From NCBI GenBank assembly GCA_045639635.1, contig JAZUDM010000038.1:1747-65746 (forward strand): 64,000 nt of DNA, in the 5' to 3' direction. The notes beneath the pieces were generated by a model that was not told the origin of the DNA, did no database searches, and saw nothing but the letters and a program-made list of their open reading frames with translations. The DNA comes from Saccharofermentans sp. Lineage in GTDB: Bacteria; Bacillota; Clostridia; Saccharofermentanales; Saccharofermentanaceae. This document shows, in pieces, positions 3,529-62,469 of this stretch (positions within the stretch are counted from its first letter, which is position 1; each line of letters starts with the position of its first letter). Both the position numbers and the translations under genes were made by a program.

Positions 3529-4644
3529 TTAAACGAAATCGAGATCGCCGAACAATGGGCTGTTTGCTGGACCACCAACATTGTTGATATATCTCTTAAG
3601 ATCCTCTGGGAAACGGCATCTGCTAAGAGCAGTCTCTCTAGAAATGATCTTTCGCTTAACGAGCTCAGCAAGATAGAAATCCAATGGGCACATACCTGTC
3701 TGAAGGCTTGTGGCAATTGTACTATCAATCTGATAAGTTTTACCCTCACGGATATTGTTACGGATAGCGTCATTAGCAAGCATGATTTCGAATGCTGCAC
3801 AACGTCCGCCTGTCATCTTAGGAACGAGAGTCTGACAGATTACAGCGATAAGGATTGAACCAAGCTGTACTCTGATCTGATCCTGCTGATGAGGAGGGAA
3901 TACGTCAATGATACGGTTAACTGTATCTGATGCACTTGATGTATGAAGTGTAGACATAACAAGGTGACCTGTCTCGGCTGCTGTAATAGCAGTACTGATT
4001 GTATCAAGGTCTCTCATCTCACCTACGAGAATTACATCTGGATCCTCACGAAGAGCAGCTCTAAGAGCGTTTGCGAATGACAATGTATCCTCGTGAATCT
4101 CTCTCTGGTTAATCATTGCCTCACCATGCTCGTGAAGATACTCGATAGGCTCCTCGAGTGTAAGGATGTGACACTTCTTAACGCTGTTTACGTGACCAAC
4201 CATTGCGGCAAGTGTTGTTGACTTACCAGAACCTGTAGGACCTGTTACAAGAATAAGTCCACGTGGTCTCATAGCAATCTCCTTGAAGATAGCTGGAAGT
4301 CCAAGCTTCTCGCAAGTTGGGATTTCATTTGTAATAGTTCTTGCAGCAAGAGAATAAGATCCACGCTGCTTGTAGATATTACATCTGAAACGGCTGAAAT
4401 CAGCTACAACGTATGAGAAGTCGATCTCACCACGCTCAGCGAGATACTGCTGACGTGAACGGTCGATCATTGACTTACACAAAAACTCTGTGTCAGCTGA
4501 TGTCAATACCTGATTGCTAAGTGGCATAAGCTCACCACTTACACGAATCATTGGTGGCAAACCTACTGTGATGTGAGTATCGGAAGCGCCTCTTCTAACT
4601 GCCTCAGAAAGAATGGCTTCCATTGTTAATGAAAATTCCTCCAC
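3529..4644 (-). CDS. pilT: Type IV pilus retraction ATPase PilT
   Basis: Walker A GPTGSGKSTT, LREDPDVILVGEMRD, TGHLVMSTLHT, AIRNNIRE (AIRNLIRE motif). GTG start with GGAGG SD. Confidence 0.95.
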   Translation of the reverse strand: MEEFSLTMEAILSEAVRRGASDTHITVGLPPMIRVSGELMPLSNQVLTSADTEFLCKSMIDRSRQQYLAERGEIDFSYVVADFSRFRCNIYKQRGSYSLAARTITNEIPTCEKLGLPAIFKEIAMRPRGLILVTGPTGSGKSTTLAAMVGHVNSVKKCHILTLEEPIEYLHEHGEAMINQREIHEDTLSFANALRAALREDPDVILVGEMRDLDTISTAITAAETGHLVMSTLHTSSASDTVNRIIDVFPPHQQDQIRVQLGSILIAVICQTLVPKMTGGRCAAFEIMLANDAIRNNIREGKTYQIDSTIATSLQTGMCPLDFYLAELVKRKIISRETALSRCRFPEDLKRYINNVGGPANSPLFGDLDFV

Positions 4645-56664: not shown

Positions 56665-58245
56665 TTAGTTTGGATTTGGCTTTGCCATGTGACTATAAAA
56701 GAACGTGTCTTCGTAATCGTATACGTAGAAGTTTTGGCTACATATATAAGCGCGTTGCTTTGTTCCTATATTTTCAAGAGAACAAACGTCATCAGCTCCC
56801 TTTTGGCCTTCAAGCGTTGATGTAAAGATTACAAGGAACATCTGAAGTGCCACGCATGCCATAACTAAAATCAAAAAACTCTTTCCCAAAAGTCTTAAAG
56901 ACAGATGAAGATTCTTTGCGTTCTCGCCTTTGTACTTTGCGGCAAATCCTGAAAGGAAGTCAGCAAACATAATAGTAAGCACAAAGAATAATGGCATTGC
57001 GCCTCTCATAGTGAAGTCATTCTGATACGTAATCTTATAAAAAGGCATAAGCATCAGCGCAATTATAACTGTCCAGAAAAGGCCATCCTTAAAGTGTCTC
57101 TTTCCAAATAAAAGGAAAGAAGGAAGAATCTCAATTACGAATACAAATAAGTAGCCAAGAAGGAACTTTCCAAAACCTCCATAGAAGGAAATTGTATTGC
57201 CGCTTATTGAAGTTGCACCGGAGTTTGCCATATACATTGGAGCAAAGCAGAGGAAAAGTACTGCCGCAGGAATAATGTTTCCGATAGAAAGAATATTCTT
57301 TATAGAAACCTTGTCGTTTGAAAGGCGCATCTTCTTTGCGAAAAGATAGTAAACAGCAATTGGGAGCATACCGAATGTAGCCCATGGAGAGTACGCAAAA
57401 CATGTTCCTGCAATTAATCCTTCAGATCTTGTGTTCTTCTGAAGTCCAAGTAAAACAACAATCAAATAGCATGGAATAACCTGATTAAATACATTCAAAA
57501 GGTTATTGATATTACTTATATAAACAATGTGCTGAGTATAACCTTCGAGCCACATCCATGACTCTTTCCCTGCAAAGAACTCAAAATAAATATAAGGAAT
57601 AATATCAAGTCCAGAGAAAAACACCAAAGCAAATACTGAAAGGTATGTTTCTCTCTTACAAATCATGCTGATTCCAAGAATAATTAAAAACAAACCAAGT
57701 GCTGACCAAAGCAAAAGTGCCACATTACCTGCACCAAAGCCAAAGACTTTACCAACTAAGGCTGGAATCATCCAGAATGAGAAATAGTAAGAGAAAGCTG
57801 CCTGTGTATCAGGGAACATCGCGTTGATTTCAGGATTTTCCATCTTGGTAAGATCCAAAAATACTGGCCACTTATGTGAAACCAGATCTCTAAAGATAGC
57901 TCTTCTGAAGGCATGGTCATCTACAGACCAGATATATTCACCAATACCTAAAGCATATGCCAAAAGAACTGAAAGTATAGAAATTACAATAAGATAAACG
58001 ATGCTTACATCAAAATGGCTGTCTTTAGAAAGGACGTTACTATTATCCTTGTTAGCATCCTTAAAAGCATAACAAATAGCAAATCCAAGCAAAAGGCTTG
58101 CAGGAAGAGCGATATAAAGCCTGAGCCAGGCGAAGAAAAACACAAGAATTGGGGCAATAAGATATATCACCGATATCAAAAAGAAAACACGATGTGAGAT
58201 GGAAACTTTGCCTGATTTCTTATTGTTAACGTCATTTTTTCGCAT
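56665..58245 (-). CDS. Polytopic membrane protein, GT-C-like (paralogue of 22111..23652)
   Basis: DDHAFRRAIFRDLVSHKWPV, YYFSFWMIPALVGKVFG, NVFNQVIP, YSPWATFGMLP, NDFTMRGAM. Confidence 0.55.
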   Translation of the reverse strand: MRKNDVNNKKSGKVSISHRVFFLISVIYLIAPILVFFFAWLRLYIALPASLLLGFAICYAFKDANKDNSNVLSKDSHFDVSIVYLIVISILSVLLAYALGIGEYIWSVDDHAFRRAIFRDLVSHKWPVFLDLTKMENPEINAMFPDTQAAFSYYFSFWMIPALVGKVFGFGAGNVALLLWSALGLFLIILGISMICKRETYLSVFALVFFSGLDIIPYIYFEFFAGKESWMWLEGYTQHIVYISNINNLLNVFNQVIPCYLIVVLLGLQKNTRSEGLIAGTCFAYSPWATFGMLPIAVYYLFAKKMRLSNDKVSIKNILSIGNIIPAAVLFLCFAPMYMANSGATSISGNTISFYGGFGKFLLGYLFVFVIEILPSFLLFGKRHFKDGLFWTVIIALMLMPFYKITYQNDFTMRGAMPLFFVLTIMFADFLSGFAAKYKGENAKNLHLSLRLLGKSFLILVMACVALQMFLVIFTSTLEGQKGADDVCSLENIGTKQRAYICSQNFYVYDYEDTFFYSHMAKPNPN

Positions 58246-58329
58246 GTTCTTATACTAAAGGGTTTAATTCGAAATGTTAAGCCTTAAGTCAAAACATTTA
58301 CAAAATTTAGCATATTTCTGTCATTAATA

Positions 58330-58358
58330 TTGAAAACCTACTATTTTGATAGTATTAT
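58330..58358 (+). promoter_or_regulatory. rrf2 promoter with operator box in the spacer
   Basis: TTGAAA (58330-35), 17 bp, TATTAT (58353-58). CCTA-ctattttga-TAGT at 58337-58353. Confidence 0.7.
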
Positions 58359-58389
58359 GGTATTATCTTATTTTCCAGGAGTTTTTACC

Positions 58390-58830
58390 ATGAAAATTTC
58401 TACTAAGGGACGCTATGCGCTCCGTATGTTAATCGATTTGGCATCACATAAGTCTGAGGGTTATGTTGCACTTAAGACTATTGCTGAGCGCCAGGATATT
58501 TCAAAAAAATACTTGGAGCAGATTGTTCCAATTCTTAATCGTACAGATATTCTTATTACTAACCGTGGTTTCCAGGGAGGCTATGCTCTCGGCCGCGATG
58601 CTTCCAGCATCACTATTGGCGAAGTATTAAGACTTACTGAGGGCAGCCTTGCACCTGTTGCATGCATGTCTTCTAGCGGTTCTATCAACTGCGACAGAAG
58701 TTCAACATGCCCTACACTCCCAATCTGGAAGGGACTTAACGAAGTAGTTAATAACTATCTTGATAGTATTACTATTCAGGATGTCGTTGATCAGACTAAC
58801 GCAGTTGGCGCAGACGACTACATTATCTAA
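58390..58830 (+). CDS. Rrf2 family transcriptional regulator (IscR/CymR-like, three-Cys motif)
   Basis: MKISTKGRYALR, ISKKYLEQI, RGFQGGYAL, EGSLAPVACMSSSGSINCDRSSTC. AGGAG SD before ATG 58390. Confidence 0.93.
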   Translation: MKISTKGRYALRMLIDLASHKSEGYVALKTIAERQDISKKYLEQIVPILNRTDILITNRGFQGGYALGRDASSITIGEVLRLTEGSLAPVACMSSSGSINCDRSSTCPTLPIWKGLNEVVNNYLDSITIQDVVDQTNAVGADDYII

Positions 58831-58860
58831 GTATTTCTTTGTTTTTGTTTTTTCTATATA

Positions 58861-58905
58861 AGGCTATTTCCTAAGTTTACTCCTTAGGAAATAGCCTCTT
58901 TTTTG
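58861..58905 (+). terminator. Intrinsic terminator of rrf2
   Basis: 15-bp stem AGGCTATTTCCTAAG-N7-CTTAGGAAATAGCCT followed by CTTTTTT. Confidence 0.85.
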
Positions 58906-58919
58906 TTTTTTACGCATAC

Positions 58920-58951
58920 GAAAAGGCCCCGCTAACAGTAAAACGGAGCCT
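58920..58951 (-). terminator. Probable terminator of cysK
   Basis: Minus strand AGGCTCCG...CGGGGCCT (with G-U pairs) followed by TTT. Confidence 0.55.
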
Positions 58952-58981
58952 CTTCAAAAAAGGTGTTTATGTCAGATTTTA

Positions 58982-59911
58982 TTAATCCTGGAAAAGTGGA
59001 GTTGAAAGATATCTGTCACCTGTATCTGGAAGGAGAACTACAATATTCTTTCCCTTGAACTCATCACGCTTTGAAAGTTCTGTTGCTGCGTAAAGTGCTG
59101 CACCAGAAGAAATACCTACAAGTACACCCTCACTTCTTGCAAAAGCTCTTCCTGTCTTAAATGCATCATCGTTCTCAACCTTGAATACTTCGTCGTAGAT
59201 TGAAGTATTAAGCGTATCTGGAACAAATCCAGCACCGATACCCTGAATCTTATGTGGGCCTGCAACGCCCTCTGAAAGAACTGGTGAACCAGCTGGCTCA
59301 ACTGCAATTACCTTAACATCAGGATTCTGCTTCTTAAGATATGCACCAACACCTGAAACTGTACCACCTGTACCAACACCAGCTACAAATACATCTACCT
59401 TACCCTCGAGGTCTGTCCAGATTTCAGGACCTGTTGTTGCCTCATGGATTGCTGGGTTAGCTGGGTTTACGAACTGGCCAGGGATAATGCTGTTTGGTGT
59501 TTCCTTCTGGATTTCTTCTGCCTTGGCGATTGCACCCTTCATTCCCTTTGAACCATCTGTAAGAACGAGCTCAGCGCCGTATGCCTTAAGAAGATTTCTT
59601 CTTTCAACTGACATTGTCTCTGGCATTGTGATAATGATCTTATATCCTCTTGCAGCTGCTACAGAAGCAAGACCGATACCTGTGTTACCTGATGTAGGCT
59701 CAATGATTGTTCCACCTGGAAGAAGCTTTCCTGTTGCCTCAGCATCGTCGATCATTGCCTTTGCAACTCTGTCCTTAACGCTTCCAGCTGGGTTAAAGTA
59801 CTCAAGCTTTGCGTAAATATTTGCCTCAGCACCATTTGCCTTACTGTAGTTATCAACCTTAAGAAGTGGTGTGCCTCCGATTAAGTCTGTTACCTTGTTT
59901 ACTAATGCCAT
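58982..59911 (-). CDS. cysK: Cysteine synthase A (O-acetylserine sulfhydrylase)
   Basis: [20 protein letters not shown] (PLP Lys), [39 protein letters not shown]. Confidence 0.98.
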
Positions 59912-59988
59912 AATAGTTACTCCTTTTATGTTTTTATTTTTATATTTACTAATTGATATTGCCGATTCGGTACACTTTGTACCTAATG

Positions 59989-60036
59989 CCTATCGGCTTT
60001 GTAGGTTTATTCTAACACCACAATTTCTAATGTCAA
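59989..60036 (-). promoter_or_regulatory. cysK promoter and operator box 1
   Basis: Minus strand TTGACA (60036-31), 16 bp, TGT-TAGAAT (60014-09). CCTA-tcggctttg-TAGG at 59989-60005. Confidence 0.75.
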
Positions 60037-60062
60037 TAGTTTTGCGAAAAATAATTTCCACT

Positions 60063-60135
60063 AAACCTATTGACAAACTAGGAATTAGGACGTAATATAC
60101 TGTCACAAGCAATTCCTACAACAACAATAGGAATT
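60063..60135 (+). promoter_or_regulatory. metY promoter with operator boxes 2 and 3 (CymR-type)
   Basis: TTGACA (60070-75), 17 bp, TAATAT (60093-98). AAACCTA-ttgacaaac-TAGGAATT (60063-86) and AATTCCTA-caacaacaa-TAGGAATT (60111-35). Confidence 0.8.
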
Positions 60136-60164
60136 AAGGGAATTGAAAACAGAGGTGTTTATTT

Positions 60165-60233
60165 ATGAAACAGTTATTACAAAAGATTATTAGAGAAAAC
60201 TACAGAAACGGACGAATGTGTACTTGTTGTTGA
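60165..60233 (+). CDS. Cysteine-rich leader peptide / small ORF, 22 aa (absent from the ORF track)
   Basis: GAGGTG SD 7 nt before ATG; MKQLLQKIIRENYRNGRMCTCC-stop; lies in the metY leader. Confidence 0.65.
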   Translation: MKQLLQKIIRENYRNGRMCTCC

Positions 60234-60299
60234 TCCTACATAAAACTTTTAACAACAAAAATAAATCAATTTAAATAATAGAAAAACGAGGTGCACATT

Positions 60300-61598
60300 A
60301 TGTCATATTCATACGCAAACAATTATAAGTTCGAAACAATCCAGCTTCACGCAGGTCAGGAAAATCCAGATCCAACAACAGACGCAAGAGCAGTACCTAT
60401 TTACCTTACTTCTTCTTTCGTCTTCCACAATTCCGAGCATGCAGCTGACAGATTTGGTCTTAGAGATGCTGGTAACATCTACGGAAGACTTACAAACCCA
60501 ACACAGAGCGTTTTCGAAGAGAGAATCGCAGCTCTCGAGGGTGGTGTAGCAGCACTTGCAGTAAGTTCTGGTGCAGCAGCAATCACATATGCTATCCAGG
60601 CTGCAGCACACGCAGGCGATCACGTAATCGCAGCATCTAACATTTACGGTGGTACATTTAACCTTCTTAAGCACACTTTGAAGGAGTTCGGCATTGAGAC
60701 AACATTCGTAGACCCATTCGATTACGATGCTCTCGAGGCAGCTTTTAAGGAGAATACAAAGGCAATCGAGATTGAGACACTCGGAAATCCTAATTCTGAA
60801 GTAGTTGATATTGCGAAAATTGCTGAGATTGCTCACAAGCACAACGTACCACTTATCGTAGATAACACATTCGCTACTCCATATCTTGTAAGACCTATCG
60901 AGTACGGTGCTGATATCGTAGTTCACTCAGCTACTAAGTTTATCGGTGGTCACGGTACATCAATCGGTGGTGTTATCATTGATTCTGGTAACTTTGACTG
61001 GATTGGTGCTAATAAGTATCCATGGCTCGTTGATCCAAACCCAAGCTACCACGGTGTAAGCTTTGCCAAGGACGTTGGAGCTGCTGCTTTCGTAACTTAT
61101 ATCAGAGCTATTCTTTTGAGAGATACAGGTGCTACACTTTCTCCTGTTCATGCATTCATTTTCCTTCAGGGATTGGAGACTCTTTCACTTCGTGTAGAGC
61201 GTCACGTTGAGAATGCACTTAAGGTTGCAAAGTTCCTTTCAGAGCAGCCACAGGTTAAGAGCGTAAGTCACCCATCTTTGACAACAGACCCTGCACAGCA
61301 GGCACTTTATAAGAAGTACTTCCCTAACGGTGGTGGATCAATCTTTACATTTGAGATCAATGGTGGCGCAGCAGAGGCTAAGAAGTTCATTGATAATTTG
61401 AACCTCTTCTCACTCCTTGCTAACGTAGCTGACGTTAAGTCACTTGCTATCCATCCAGCTTCTACAACACACTCAGAGGATAACGATGAGGAGCTCGCTC
61501 TCCAGGGAATCACACAGTCAACAATCCGTCTCTCAATTGGTGTTGAGCATATTGATGACATCCTCGCTGACTTAAAGCAGGCATTCGATAACCTTTAA
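60300..61598 (+). CDS. metY: O-acetylhomoserine (thiol)-lyase / aminocarboxypropyltransferase
   Basis: FETIQLHAGQ, PIYLTSSFVF, IYGRLTNPT, VDNTFATP, HSATKFIGGHG (PLP Lys), LANVADVKSLAIHPASTTH. GAGGTG SD before ATG 60300. Confidence 0.96.
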   Translation: MSYSYANNYKFETIQLHAGQENPDPTTDARAVPIYLTSSFVFHNSEHAADRFGLRDAGNIYGRLTNPTQSVFEERIAALEGGVAALAVSSGAAAITYAIQAAAHAGDHVIAASNIYGGTFNLLKHTLKEFGIETTFVDPFDYDALEAAFKENTKAIEIETLGNPNSEVVDIAKIAEIAHKHNVPLIVDNTFATPYLVRPIEYGADIVVHSATKFIGGHGTSIGGVIIDSGNFDWIGANKYPWLVDPNPSYHGVSFAKDVGAAAFVTYIRAILLRDTGATLSPVHAFIFLQGLETLSLRVERHVENALKVAKFLSEQPQVKSVSHPSLTTDPAQQALYKKYFPNGGGSIFTFEINGGAAEAKKFIDNLNLFSLLANVADVKSLAIHPASTTHSEDNDEELALQGITQSTIRLSIGVEHIDDILADLKQAFDNL

Positions 61599-61631
61599 TA
61601 ATTAAAAATAAATATAAACATAAGCCATAAT

Positions 61632-61667
61632 AAAACCTCCACATCACATTCGTGGAGGTTTTGTTTG
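61632..61667. terminator. Bidirectional intrinsic terminator
   Basis: AAAACCTCCAC-N9-GTGGAGGTTTT-GTTT. Confidence 0.85.
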
Positions 61668-61668
61668 C

Positions 61669-62469
61669 TTAAAATCCCATATTTTCCAGGTCAACTACAA
61701 CCTTCTCGTATACTTCCAAAATATCAGATACGCCTTCACCTTTCTTACTTGTAAAAGGCTTTCTTCTAAAATCAACTTCATCGCAATGGGAAATTCCGCG
61801 ATTACTGTTGGACTTAACTACACCTTTATAGTCGCCCCACATAACTGAACTTGGAGCAAGAAGGCCATCGTTTTGTCCATCGAAAATATTTACTACAAGG
61901 TTTGTAAACCACAAAAACATATCTGAAGTAAATCTCTTCATGACGAAAGCATAACTTTGGTAGTAAATTCCATCCACATCAGGATTTTCTTCGTTAAACT
62001 TCTGGGCATTTTCAGTTTTAAAACTATAAATAGCAGTATAAGTATCAGGGTACTTATCGCCTCGCATCTTAAACCAGCCATCTACAAGCTTACAGAAAAT
62101 CTTAATAACAAACTTTGGAAGTTTTAAAAGGAAATCTACTGTCTTAGAACCGTTATGTGGTGTCTGCATCGTTGTAATTGATGCAATCTTATCCCCATAA
62201 CCCATAGTGGATGCAATATAACGAGCTTCAAGGCCGCCTTTACTATGAGCGATTATGTTTACTTTAGACGCACCAGTTTCTTTTAAAATTTCATCTATCC
62301 TATTAGCTACAAACTTACCATTACTTTCAATTGACGCATCAACATCCTGGCCACTTAAGTAAACCTTAAGGCCCATCTCATCTAATTCCTGAGGAACTCT
62401 TCCCCAGTATTTAAAAATACCGTCGTCACTAAACCACATTCCGTGAACCAAAAGAACTGGATACTTCAT
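61669..62469 (-). CDS. Alpha/beta-hydrolase lipase/esterase
   Basis: YPVLLVHG, IIAHSKGGLEAR (nucleophile Ser), TPHNGS, NDGL, ISH. GGAGG SD before ATG 62469. Confidence 0.9.
   Translation of the reverse strand: MKYPVLLVHGMWFSDDGIFKYWGRVPQELDEMGLKVYLSGQDVDASIESNGKFVANRIDEILKETGASKVNIIAHSKGGLEARYIASTMGYGDKIASITTMQTPHNGSKTVDFLLKLPKFVIKIFCKLVDGWFKMRGDKYPDTYTAIYSFKTENAQKFNEENPDVDGIYYQSYAFVMKRFTSDMFLWFTNLVVNIFDGQNDGLLAPSSVMWGDYKGVVKSNSNRGISHCDEVDFRRKPFTSKKGEGVSDILEVYEKVVVDLENMGF

Follow-up and report, generated by a model that had tools for sequence, protein, structure and literature searches.

A candidate family of methionine-regulon leader peptides with an invariant CGA-AUG codon pair in Clostridia

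We analyzed a 64,000-nucleotide stretch of DNA from Saccharofermentans sp. (contig JAZUDM010000038.1 of GenBank assembly GCA_045639635.1, positions 1,747 to 65,746 of the forward strand), which is called the window and whose numbering is used unless another contig is named. In the window, a short open reading frame (ORF) at 60165-60233 of the forward strand lies directly 5' of metY, the gene for O-acetylhomoserine/O-acetylserine sulfhydrylase (60300-61598, forward strand; PF01053, 450 bits; TIGR01326, 627.6 bits against a cut-off of 495.1). Sequence comparison and RNA folding make it reasonably probable that this ORF is translated into a leader peptide which acts in cis within the methionine regulon and regulates metY by translational attenuation. 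By its sequence, the leader ORF is a member of a large family of leader peptides in Clostridia, the conserved part of which is an 18-residue peptide and not the Cys tail.

The leader ORF has 22 codons followed by UGA, and its translated product is MKQLLQKIIRENYRNGRMCTCC. A Shine-Dalgarno sequence, GAGGTG (60152-60157, forward strand), precedes its ATG by 7 nt. The ORF ends with ATG-TGT-ACT-TGT-TGT-TGA (60216-60233), with one Met and three Cys codons within the last five sense codons, and the 47 nt directly 3' of it (60234-60280) contain zero G. The original prediction, which was made from the sequence alone, had described the ORF, its Shine-Dalgarno sequence, its 3' end and the G-free run of about 47 nt, and all four descriptions were confirmed.

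The leader family and its regulon

The ORF is more than a chance occurrence, as a degenerate peptide-level pattern matched once in the window against 0.00 matches expected. A short ORF was found at the same position in all six of the closest MetY orthologues (79-100% identity, same genus), and the leaders of close relatives within the genus read MFTIQKETRHNYRQGRM, MNYVFIMIRHNYRNGRMCRFFYL, MNIIFAMLRRNYRNGRMCLCMCTR, MNIIFAMLRRNYRNGRMCLCCAIR and MLQYIIRHNYRNGRMCRSCCRIS, each followed by a stop codon. Wide scans with degenerate patterns at the peptide level, in one genome per prokaryote species, returned 33, 39 and at least 120 loci, while about 4-17 were expected by chance according to our own estimate. 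The original prediction had been made to depend on the conservation of the ORF in relatives, and the mini-gene is present in the six closest metY orthologues and in at least 120 species genomes. The matches listed were almost all from Clostridia, namely Oscillospiraceae, Ruminococcus, Lachnospiraceae, Christensenellaceae, Eubacteriaceae, Saccharofermentans and a few others. In an even sample of 401 Clostridia genomes, the pattern N-[YF]-R-x-G-R(CGA)-M was found in 32 genomes from 24 genera, while a reversed control pattern gave 2 hits; the family was thus seen in about 8% of the sampled Clostridia genomes and in many families of gut and rumen anaerobes. Cultured carriers include Yeguia hominis NSJ-40, Cuneatibacter sp. 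NSJ-177, Eubacterium sp. OM08-24 and the Ruminococcaceae bacteria KHP2 and P7.

For the family set, 127 leaders (115 distinct peptides) were extracted, with N12, Y13, R14, G16, R17 and M18 fixed by the search patterns. Their consensus is M-x-x-[LIY]-F-x-x-L-[LV]-R-x-N-Y-R-[F/N/Y]-G-R-M, followed either by UGA or by a short Cys-rich tail; position 13 can also be F, which gives the core pattern N-[YF]-R-x-G-R-M. The Met is residue 18 in 105 of the 127 leaders, a Shine-Dalgarno-like run of at least 4 nt precedes 123, and 118 start with ATG. Outside the conserved positions the leader sequences are otherwise unrelated, and they share no conserved local RNA structure. Listeria cornellensis has a 16-codon ORF (MRNNYRNGRMCDKLSK, followed by a stop codon) 5' of the gene for a 217-amino-acid membrane protein; it is without the N-terminal half of the consensus and may be a chance match or a degenerate relative.

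The first gene downstream of the 127 leaders is metY in 97 cases, metQ in 15 and metN in 2; six leaders lie at a contig end, and seven precede other genes, two of which look like mis-framed metY, with the remainder including an amino-acid ABC permease and an energy-coupling factor (ECF) S-component. The mini-gene is always the first ORF directly 5' of metY, metQ or metN, mostly 25-130 nt upstream. The genome of the window carries a second copy of the family, MKNYFEQLIRANYRFGRMCK (followed by a stop codon), on the reverse strand of contig C1 at about 4147-4209, 54 nt 5' of metQ-metN-metI. By the identity of these downstream genes, the regulon of the family is that of methionine and comprises metY, metQ and metN.

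In the same genome, the sole SAM-I riboswitch, named for S-adenosylmethionine (SAM), lies 5' of metK (contig C44, 67104-67202), and none of the eight T-boxes is on the metY or metQ contig. With SAM-I at metK only, SAM sensing and control by leader peptides would be divided between different genes. An Rfam scan of 20 related metY loci gave no relevant match, and S-box and T-box RNAs were absent from the leader loci examined. Judged by position, the leader therefore seems to hold the place that these RNAs occupy in other Firmicutes.

Relatives within the genus that lack the N-Y-R-N-G-R-M core have other Met/Cys leaders. At ten same-genus metY loci (L012, L013, L021-L026, L028 and L030), the leaders are long (29-42 codons) and rich in Met and Cys codons, for example MSATYRKSMCMCMMPCWYEMEIECFSCHVDDQDTRM (followed by a stop codon). 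Most of them end in CGA-AUG-UGA, most are then followed by an intrinsic terminator, and a conserved UGCUUCUCUUG inside the ORF is complementary to the 5' arm of the terminator. The sequences of these long leaders mark them as what appears to be a classical transcription attenuator for sulfur amino acids. Leaders of an intermediate form, MYDRKFYFQSLVRxNFRCGRMCCSCSNSRCS...TITI with a stop codon, were seen at six further same-genus metY loci (L015-L020), where a short-type core is joined to a long tail, rich in Cys and Ser, whose end lies about 20 nt 5' of metY. In three close relatives (loci L004, L005 and L034), a short leader and metY are separated by a strong terminator-like hairpin of -18 to -21 kcal/mol with a U-rich tail behind it, while the window is without one; this hairpin suggests an added transcriptional stage in some lineages.

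Codons, stop codon and Cys tail of the leaders

Among the conserved residues, all six synonymous codons occur at each of Leu8, Arg10 and Arg14, all four at Gly16, and both at Asn12 and at Tyr13. The core N12-Y13-R14-N15-G16-R17-M18 is encoded at 60198-60218 (forward strand) in the window, and its codons for N, Y, R14 and G vary synonymously in the family. Because the conserved residues drift through synonymous codons, the leader element appears to be coding, with selection acting on it at the peptide level.

Arg17 was encoded by CGA in 36 of 36 leaders when the search pattern permitted any MGN codon, and the pair CGA-AUG (Arg17-Met18; 60213-60218, forward strand), the proposed pause site, is invariant across the family. 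The same-genus metY loci had been found independently, by MetY homology, and every Met/Cys leader listed from them likewise has CGA-ATG at or near its 3' end. CGA makes up 3.7% of the Arg codons in the genome of the window, which has one tRNA-Arg(ACG) gene. CGA is read through an inosine-adenosine (I:A) wobble, a pairing that in yeast disturbs decoding of the codon that follows.

The stretch CGAAUGUG is invariant at the nucleotide level across the leaders, as it could be in an untranslated, riboswitch-like RNA element whose core is an open frame by accident. We find such an element scarcely credible, since every other conserved position drifts synonymously, the Shine-Dalgarno sequence and ATG are kept at a fixed distance of 18 codons, Cys enrichment is specific to the reading frame, and otherwise unrelated leader sequences without conserved local structure would have to form it. 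There was also no Rfam match even at E values up to 10: a cmscan search of 58000-62000 at this threshold gave nothing in 59912-60299 except a 17.7-bit chance match to CRISPR-DR on the opposite strand.

The tail of the window leader, Cys19-Thr20-Cys21-Cys22 (UGU ACU UGU UGU; 60219-60230, forward strand), is proposed to provide facultative cysteine-sensing codons. Cys makes up 30% of the tail residues beyond the first in the family, compared with 1.45% in the proteins of the window's genome. TGY triplets are distributed over frames 0, 1 and 2 as 118/9/3 in the translated tails and as 10/11/5 in the same stretch past the stop codons of tail-less leaders. At least two Cys residues were found in 50 of 97 metY leaders and in 3 of 17 metQ/metN leaders (p = 0.016), while 25 of 97 metY leaders and 11 of 17 metQ/metN leaders have no tail (p = 0.003). 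The Cys bias toward metY leaders is in keeping with a sulfhydrylase that has a part in making cysteine as well as homocysteine, as opposed to a methionine importer. These counts support the view that the Cys codons are real regulatory codons that would act as codons, yet are optional, as 38 of the 127 leaders (30%) end directly after the Met. The original prediction of a cysteine-sensing leader therefore holds in part: the leader appears to be cis-regulatory and its Cys codons to act as codons, but the conserved element is the core ending in N-Y-R-x-G-R(CGA)-M, and the regulon is that of methionine.

The same prediction had offered, as a second possibility, that the Cys-tailed peptide is a small protein acting in trans as a redox, metal or Fe-S partner of Rrf2; MetY could also be considered as its partner. 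Conservation of the whole peptide, the chemical reactivity of Cys-rich C-termini and an Rrf2 gene 1.3 kb away in the window are in keeping with this idea. However, the 38 members that end at Met have no Cys, Rrf2 was in the fetched stretch at only 30 of 120 loci, and Cys content was independent of its presence (1.67 versus 1.50). In addition, the mini-gene always comes directly before metY, metQ or metN, and the 3' end of the leader is complementary to each downstream ribosome-binding site (RBS). An action in trans is therefore very improbable, and the proposed partnership with Rrf2 finds no backing in the family.

The stop codon is also biased. When the codon 3' of Met was left free in the scan, it was UGN in 35 of about 40 leaders, and UGA directly followed Met in every tail-less leader seen, including those from that scan. 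Only 20% of the long ORFs in the genome of the window stop at UGA. Among tail-bearing leaders, 51 of 88 stop at UGA, compared with 31 of 101 downstream genes (p = 2e-4). It is a speculative idea that the UGA excess reflects a sensed step of slow termination by release factor 2 (RF2), arising from SAM-dependent RF2 methylation.

Predicted masking of the metY ribosome-binding site and proposed control

RNAfold predicted a long-range helix of 15 bp between the leader and the start of metY. Its 5' arm, which would be the anti-RBS strand, covers leader codons 16-21 (GAC GAA UGU GUA CUU; 60211-60225, forward strand), and its 3' arm (60289-60304, forward strand) holds most of the metY Shine-Dalgarno sequence (GAGGUG, 60288-60293) together with the AUG (60300-60302). 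An inner hairpin of 8 bp with a 15-nt loop (60226-60256, forward strand) is predicted to form between GUUGUUGA (60226-60233) and UUAACAAC (60249-60256) and to stack on the long-range helix; its repeat is also present in the close relative L057. The original prediction had seen no hairpin past the ORF, which these two predicted structures contradict. In folding of the 106-nt segment, z was -2.96, and 1 of 200 shuffled sequences was as stable. The duplex of the window had an energy of -20.7 kcal/mol, while shuffled arms gave -9.85 +/- 2.67 kcal/mol and 0 of 1000 were as good. In the free RNA, the metY RBS had a predicted probability of 0.21 of being unpaired. A ribosome footprint placed at Arg17, at Met18 or on the Cys codons increased this value to 0.49, and one at codon 2 or 8 left it at 0.21.

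Similar pairing was predicted elsewhere in the family. For the metQ leader copy on contig C1, the Shine-Dalgarno sequence, AUG and first codons of metQ have a predicted pairing partner in the RNA that begins just past the Met codon and runs to about +45, and across the family the predicted pairing partner of the RBS peaks at +7 to +16 from the Met codon. In a cognate test with a non-redundant set of 82 loci, the stall-site segment of each leader was paired with its own RBS and with all other RBSs. The mean duplex energy was -9.7 kcal/mol for cognate and -8.05 kcal/mol for non-cognate pairs (z = -7.0; 0 of 20000 permutations). A fourth control segment, the leader core codons, which overlap the pause site, gave z = -3.4. 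The other three controls, taken from the leader 5' part, the 5' untranslated region (UTR) and the coding sequence of the same loci, had no cognate advantage (z = +0.2 to +1.5), and generic anti-Shine-Dalgarno pairing by such segments was rejected. Masking by a ribosome at Met18 raised the predicted accessibility of the RBS in the family from 0.426 to 0.504 (p = 2e-7), while masking at a control position had no effect. The folding models thus indicate that the downstream RBS can be sequestered by RNA at or just after the stall site, as in translational attenuation, and that helix and RBS vary together from one locus to the next. Some loci, among them that of the window, show a strong effect and others a weak one. 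Another candidate pairing, of CAACAACAA in the 5' UTR (60119-60127) as alternative partner of the UUGUUGUUG tail, is absent in the closest relative, L057, and is probably due to chance.

No terminator-like site was found between the promoter and metY (60100-60300), and 101 of 106 family spacers contain no intrinsic terminator, with one present in 5 of 106. The original prediction, which saw no hairpin, proposed that stalling at the Cys codons controls either Rho-type termination or the translation of metY. In the Rho model, Rho would load on the G-free spacer after release at the leader stop and terminate before or within metY, and a ribosome stalled at the Cys codons would block it. The 47-nt G-free run, the scarcity of intrinsic terminators and a Rho protein, whose presence the prediction had proposed to check and which is indeed encoded in the genome of the window, are all compatible with this. 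However, the spacers are short (57 nt in the window, mostly 45-65 nt in the family) and A-rich, with C only weakly over G, and the G-free run of the window has about 7 C by our own count. On average the 106 spacers consist of 43% A, 18% C and 14% G, and C exceeds G in 65 of them, so that the spacer, described earlier as A/C-rich, is A-rich rather than C-rich. Furthermore, the ribosome-free spacer would be present whether or not an upstream stall occurs, and Rho leaves the co-variation of leader and RBS unexplained. With a helix predicted that would sequester the RBS and that varies with it, the step from a missing hairpin to Rho falls away, and we consider Rho-dependent attenuation improbable.

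In the translational attenuation that we propose, 60211-60225 (codons 16-21) would pair with the metY Shine-Dalgarno sequence and AUG (60289-60304) and mask both. When the leader is read fast and the ribosome is released at UGA, the helix would reform and little metY would be translated. Under a shortage of Met-tRNA or Cys-tRNA, the ribosome would wait at one of two places: at Arg17-Met18, where the rare CGA occupies the P site and AUG the A site, or on the three Cys codons. The waiting ribosome would keep the anti-RBS strand inside itself, leaving the metY RBS free and the gene ON. The single Met codon could become a sensitive pause site through the conserved nascent chain together with CGA, which is invariant and slowly decoded, and the Rrf2-type operator at the promoter would add a separate transcriptional control. 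From the sequences and folds we infer the translation of the leader, the pausing, the signal sensed and the direction of control alike.

Several points weigh against this proposal. By classical standards, one Met codon on its own senses starvation poorly, and strong conservation of amino acids is superfluous for a pure hungry-codon device, which hints at a further function of the nascent chain. A cognate duplex of -10 kcal/mol or better was found in only 33 of 82 loci (about 40%), compared with 25.5% of non-cognate pairs, and the mean gain in accessibility is modest, so that the helix model may hold for a subset only. Invariance of the core residues in the wide set is in part ascertainment, as the search patterns fixed them, and the loci are phylogenetically related, which makes the p-values optimistic.

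The conservation of the nascent chain can be read in two further ways. It is possible, though rather less likely than not, that N-[YF]-R-x-G-R-M is a programmed arrest peptide. Together with a tRNA-Arg that reads P-site CGA by I:A wobble, the chain would then make peptide bond formation or termination at the single Met codon depend directly on the methionine supply, sensed as Met-tRNA or as a ligand bound in the tunnel. If this were true, it would be the first example in bacteria of amino-acid biosynthesis genes controlled as a regulon by a nascent-peptide sensor, and a prokaryotic counterpart of plant CGS1, and S-box/T-box control would have been replaced in a sizeable fraction of gut and rumen Clostridia. 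Less likely still is a ligand-sensing arrest peptide of the TnaC/SpeFL type, in which the chain in the exit tunnel would bind methionine, SAM or homocysteine and so set the stall at Met18/UGA, without sensing tRNA charging; it could coexist with the RBS helix as output. The family has the amino-acid-level conservation near the stall site that is typical of arrest peptides, with full synonymous drift, a fixed length of 18 residues and an invariant last pair of sense codons, and the UGA preference resembles the stop-codon stalling of TnaC. On the other hand, an RBS-masking helix means that a stall is ON, so that the ligand would have to relieve the stall at genes of biosynthesis and uptake. We know of no precedent for a ligand that relieves a stall for such genes. 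The frame-specific Cys codons with their bias toward metY fit tRNA sensing better, and relatives within the genus have classical leaders rich in Met and Cys codons, with terminators, at the same place.

Upstream of the leader, a sigma-70-type promoter (TTGACA-17 nt-TAATAT; 60070-60098, forward strand) is predicted from 10 of 12 consensus matches. A repeat search found a perfect inverted repeat, AATTCCTA-N9-TAGGAATT (60111-60135), just 3' of the -10 box, which is a candidate operator. Several inverted repeats of the form CCTA...TAGG were seen in the cysK-metY intergenic region (59982-60009, 60062-60089 and 60111-60135). In relatives, CCTAT-N7-GTAGG lies between the -10 box and the leader, and it likewise occurs 5' of the metQ leader on contig C1. 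These repeats are likely a shared operator of a repressor of the Rrf2/CymR type, the identity of which we infer from sequence. The candidate binder is an Rrf2-family regulator encoded at 58387-58830 (forward strand; rrf2_super above its cut-off); the IscR and CymR models both score below their cut-offs for this gene. Together, the inverted repeats of the promoter and the nearby Rrf2 gene suggest a separate layer of transcriptional control.

Of the neighboring genes, cysK, which encodes cysteine synthase A (58982-59911, reverse strand; TIGR01139, 457 bits against a cut-off of 351), is divergent and does not lie 3' of the leader. The Rrf2 and cysK genes converge on a GC-containing hairpin of 15 bp with U-runs (58861-58897), which is probably a bidirectional terminator. 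Further upstream, 56665-58245 (reverse strand) encodes a multi-pass membrane protein of 526 amino acids without a Pfam match.

Comparison with known systems

We found no record of the family in Rfam, Pfam, NCBIfam or the literature. Four leader peptides had no match in Pfam or NCBIfam at E values up to 10, and the short leader peptides were not present in an exact look-up in a collection of 15 billion proteins. The strings NYRNGRM, YRFGRM and YRNGRM occurred in no paper found, NYRFG occurred only in an unrelated clinical protocol, and literature on the topic gave no description of a methionine leader peptide. This agrees with the original prediction, which knew of no clostridial leader of this kind.

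The closest characterized system is the "Cys ribulon" of mycobacteria (Canestrari et al., bioRxiv 10.1101/834739), in which ribosomes stalled in polycysteine, leaderless short ORFs were demonstrated to block a duplex that sequesters the downstream RBS. The clostridial family shares with it a short upstream ORF with Cys codons, sulfur amino-acid genes, the lack of an intrinsic terminator and the same output, which is predicted here. However, the mycobacterial ORFs are leaderless, actinobacterial and defined by the poly-Cys tract alone, while the clostridial family is Shine-Dalgarno-led, has an 18-residue conserved peptide, an invariant CGA-AUG and optional Cys, and belongs to a methionine regulon (metY, metQNI). 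In the window, the leader lies behind a 5' UTR of about 60 nt (end of the predicted -10 box at 60098, ORF start at 60165). A consecutive Cys tract is not the only conserved feature, as the tail of the window leader is C-T-C-C and 30% of the family is without Cys.

In the classical attenuators trpL, hisL, leuL, pheL and thrL, a mini-gene contains codons for the controlled amino acid, and the position of the ribosome selects the fold of the RNA. The leader of the window resembles them as a putative 5'-leader ORF with codons of the regulated amino acid. It differs in having no terminator/antiterminator, a predicted translational output and one Met codon instead of a run, and the peptide sequence is conserved in its family, which classical attenuators do not require.

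In ermC, ermB and cat, a ribosome stalled on the leader melts a helix that masks the downstream Shine-Dalgarno sequence and start codon, and the sequence of the nascent chain matters. The predicted RBS-masking helix would be an output of the same kind. The trigger in those systems is an antibiotic in the exit tunnel; here it would presumably be the supply of sulfur amino acids, and the genes are biosynthetic and transport genes.

Among arrest peptides, SpeFL senses ornithine, the fungal AAP senses Arg, and the MTO1 region of plant CGS1, a methionine-pathway enzyme, senses SAM. TnaC is an arrest peptide that senses Trp (PMC8429421). The leader family shares with these a short, tunnel-length peptide, conservation near the C-terminus and a stop codon that often lies directly at the arrest site, and like CGS1 it would control a methionine-pathway enzyme. 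It has no sequence similarity to them, and its predicted output is unmasking of an RBS, not blockage of Rho or mRNA decay.

The S-box (SAM-I, RF00162) and Met T-box (RF00230) leaders control methionine genes of Firmicutes, which are textbook cases of riboswitch and T-box regulation. The leader family likewise sits in the 5' leaders of metY, metQNI and related genes, but with neither RNA at these loci, and it appears to take over for metY and metQNI. It would combine three features that are usually separate: regulatory codons (Met and optional Cys), a helix that masks the RBS, and a conserved, arrest-like chain in which one rare codon is invariant. The family would also be a case showing that many peptides of about 20 residues have a function although they are unannotated, and it offers a compact system for asking how a single codon can serve as a sensitive metabolic sensor.

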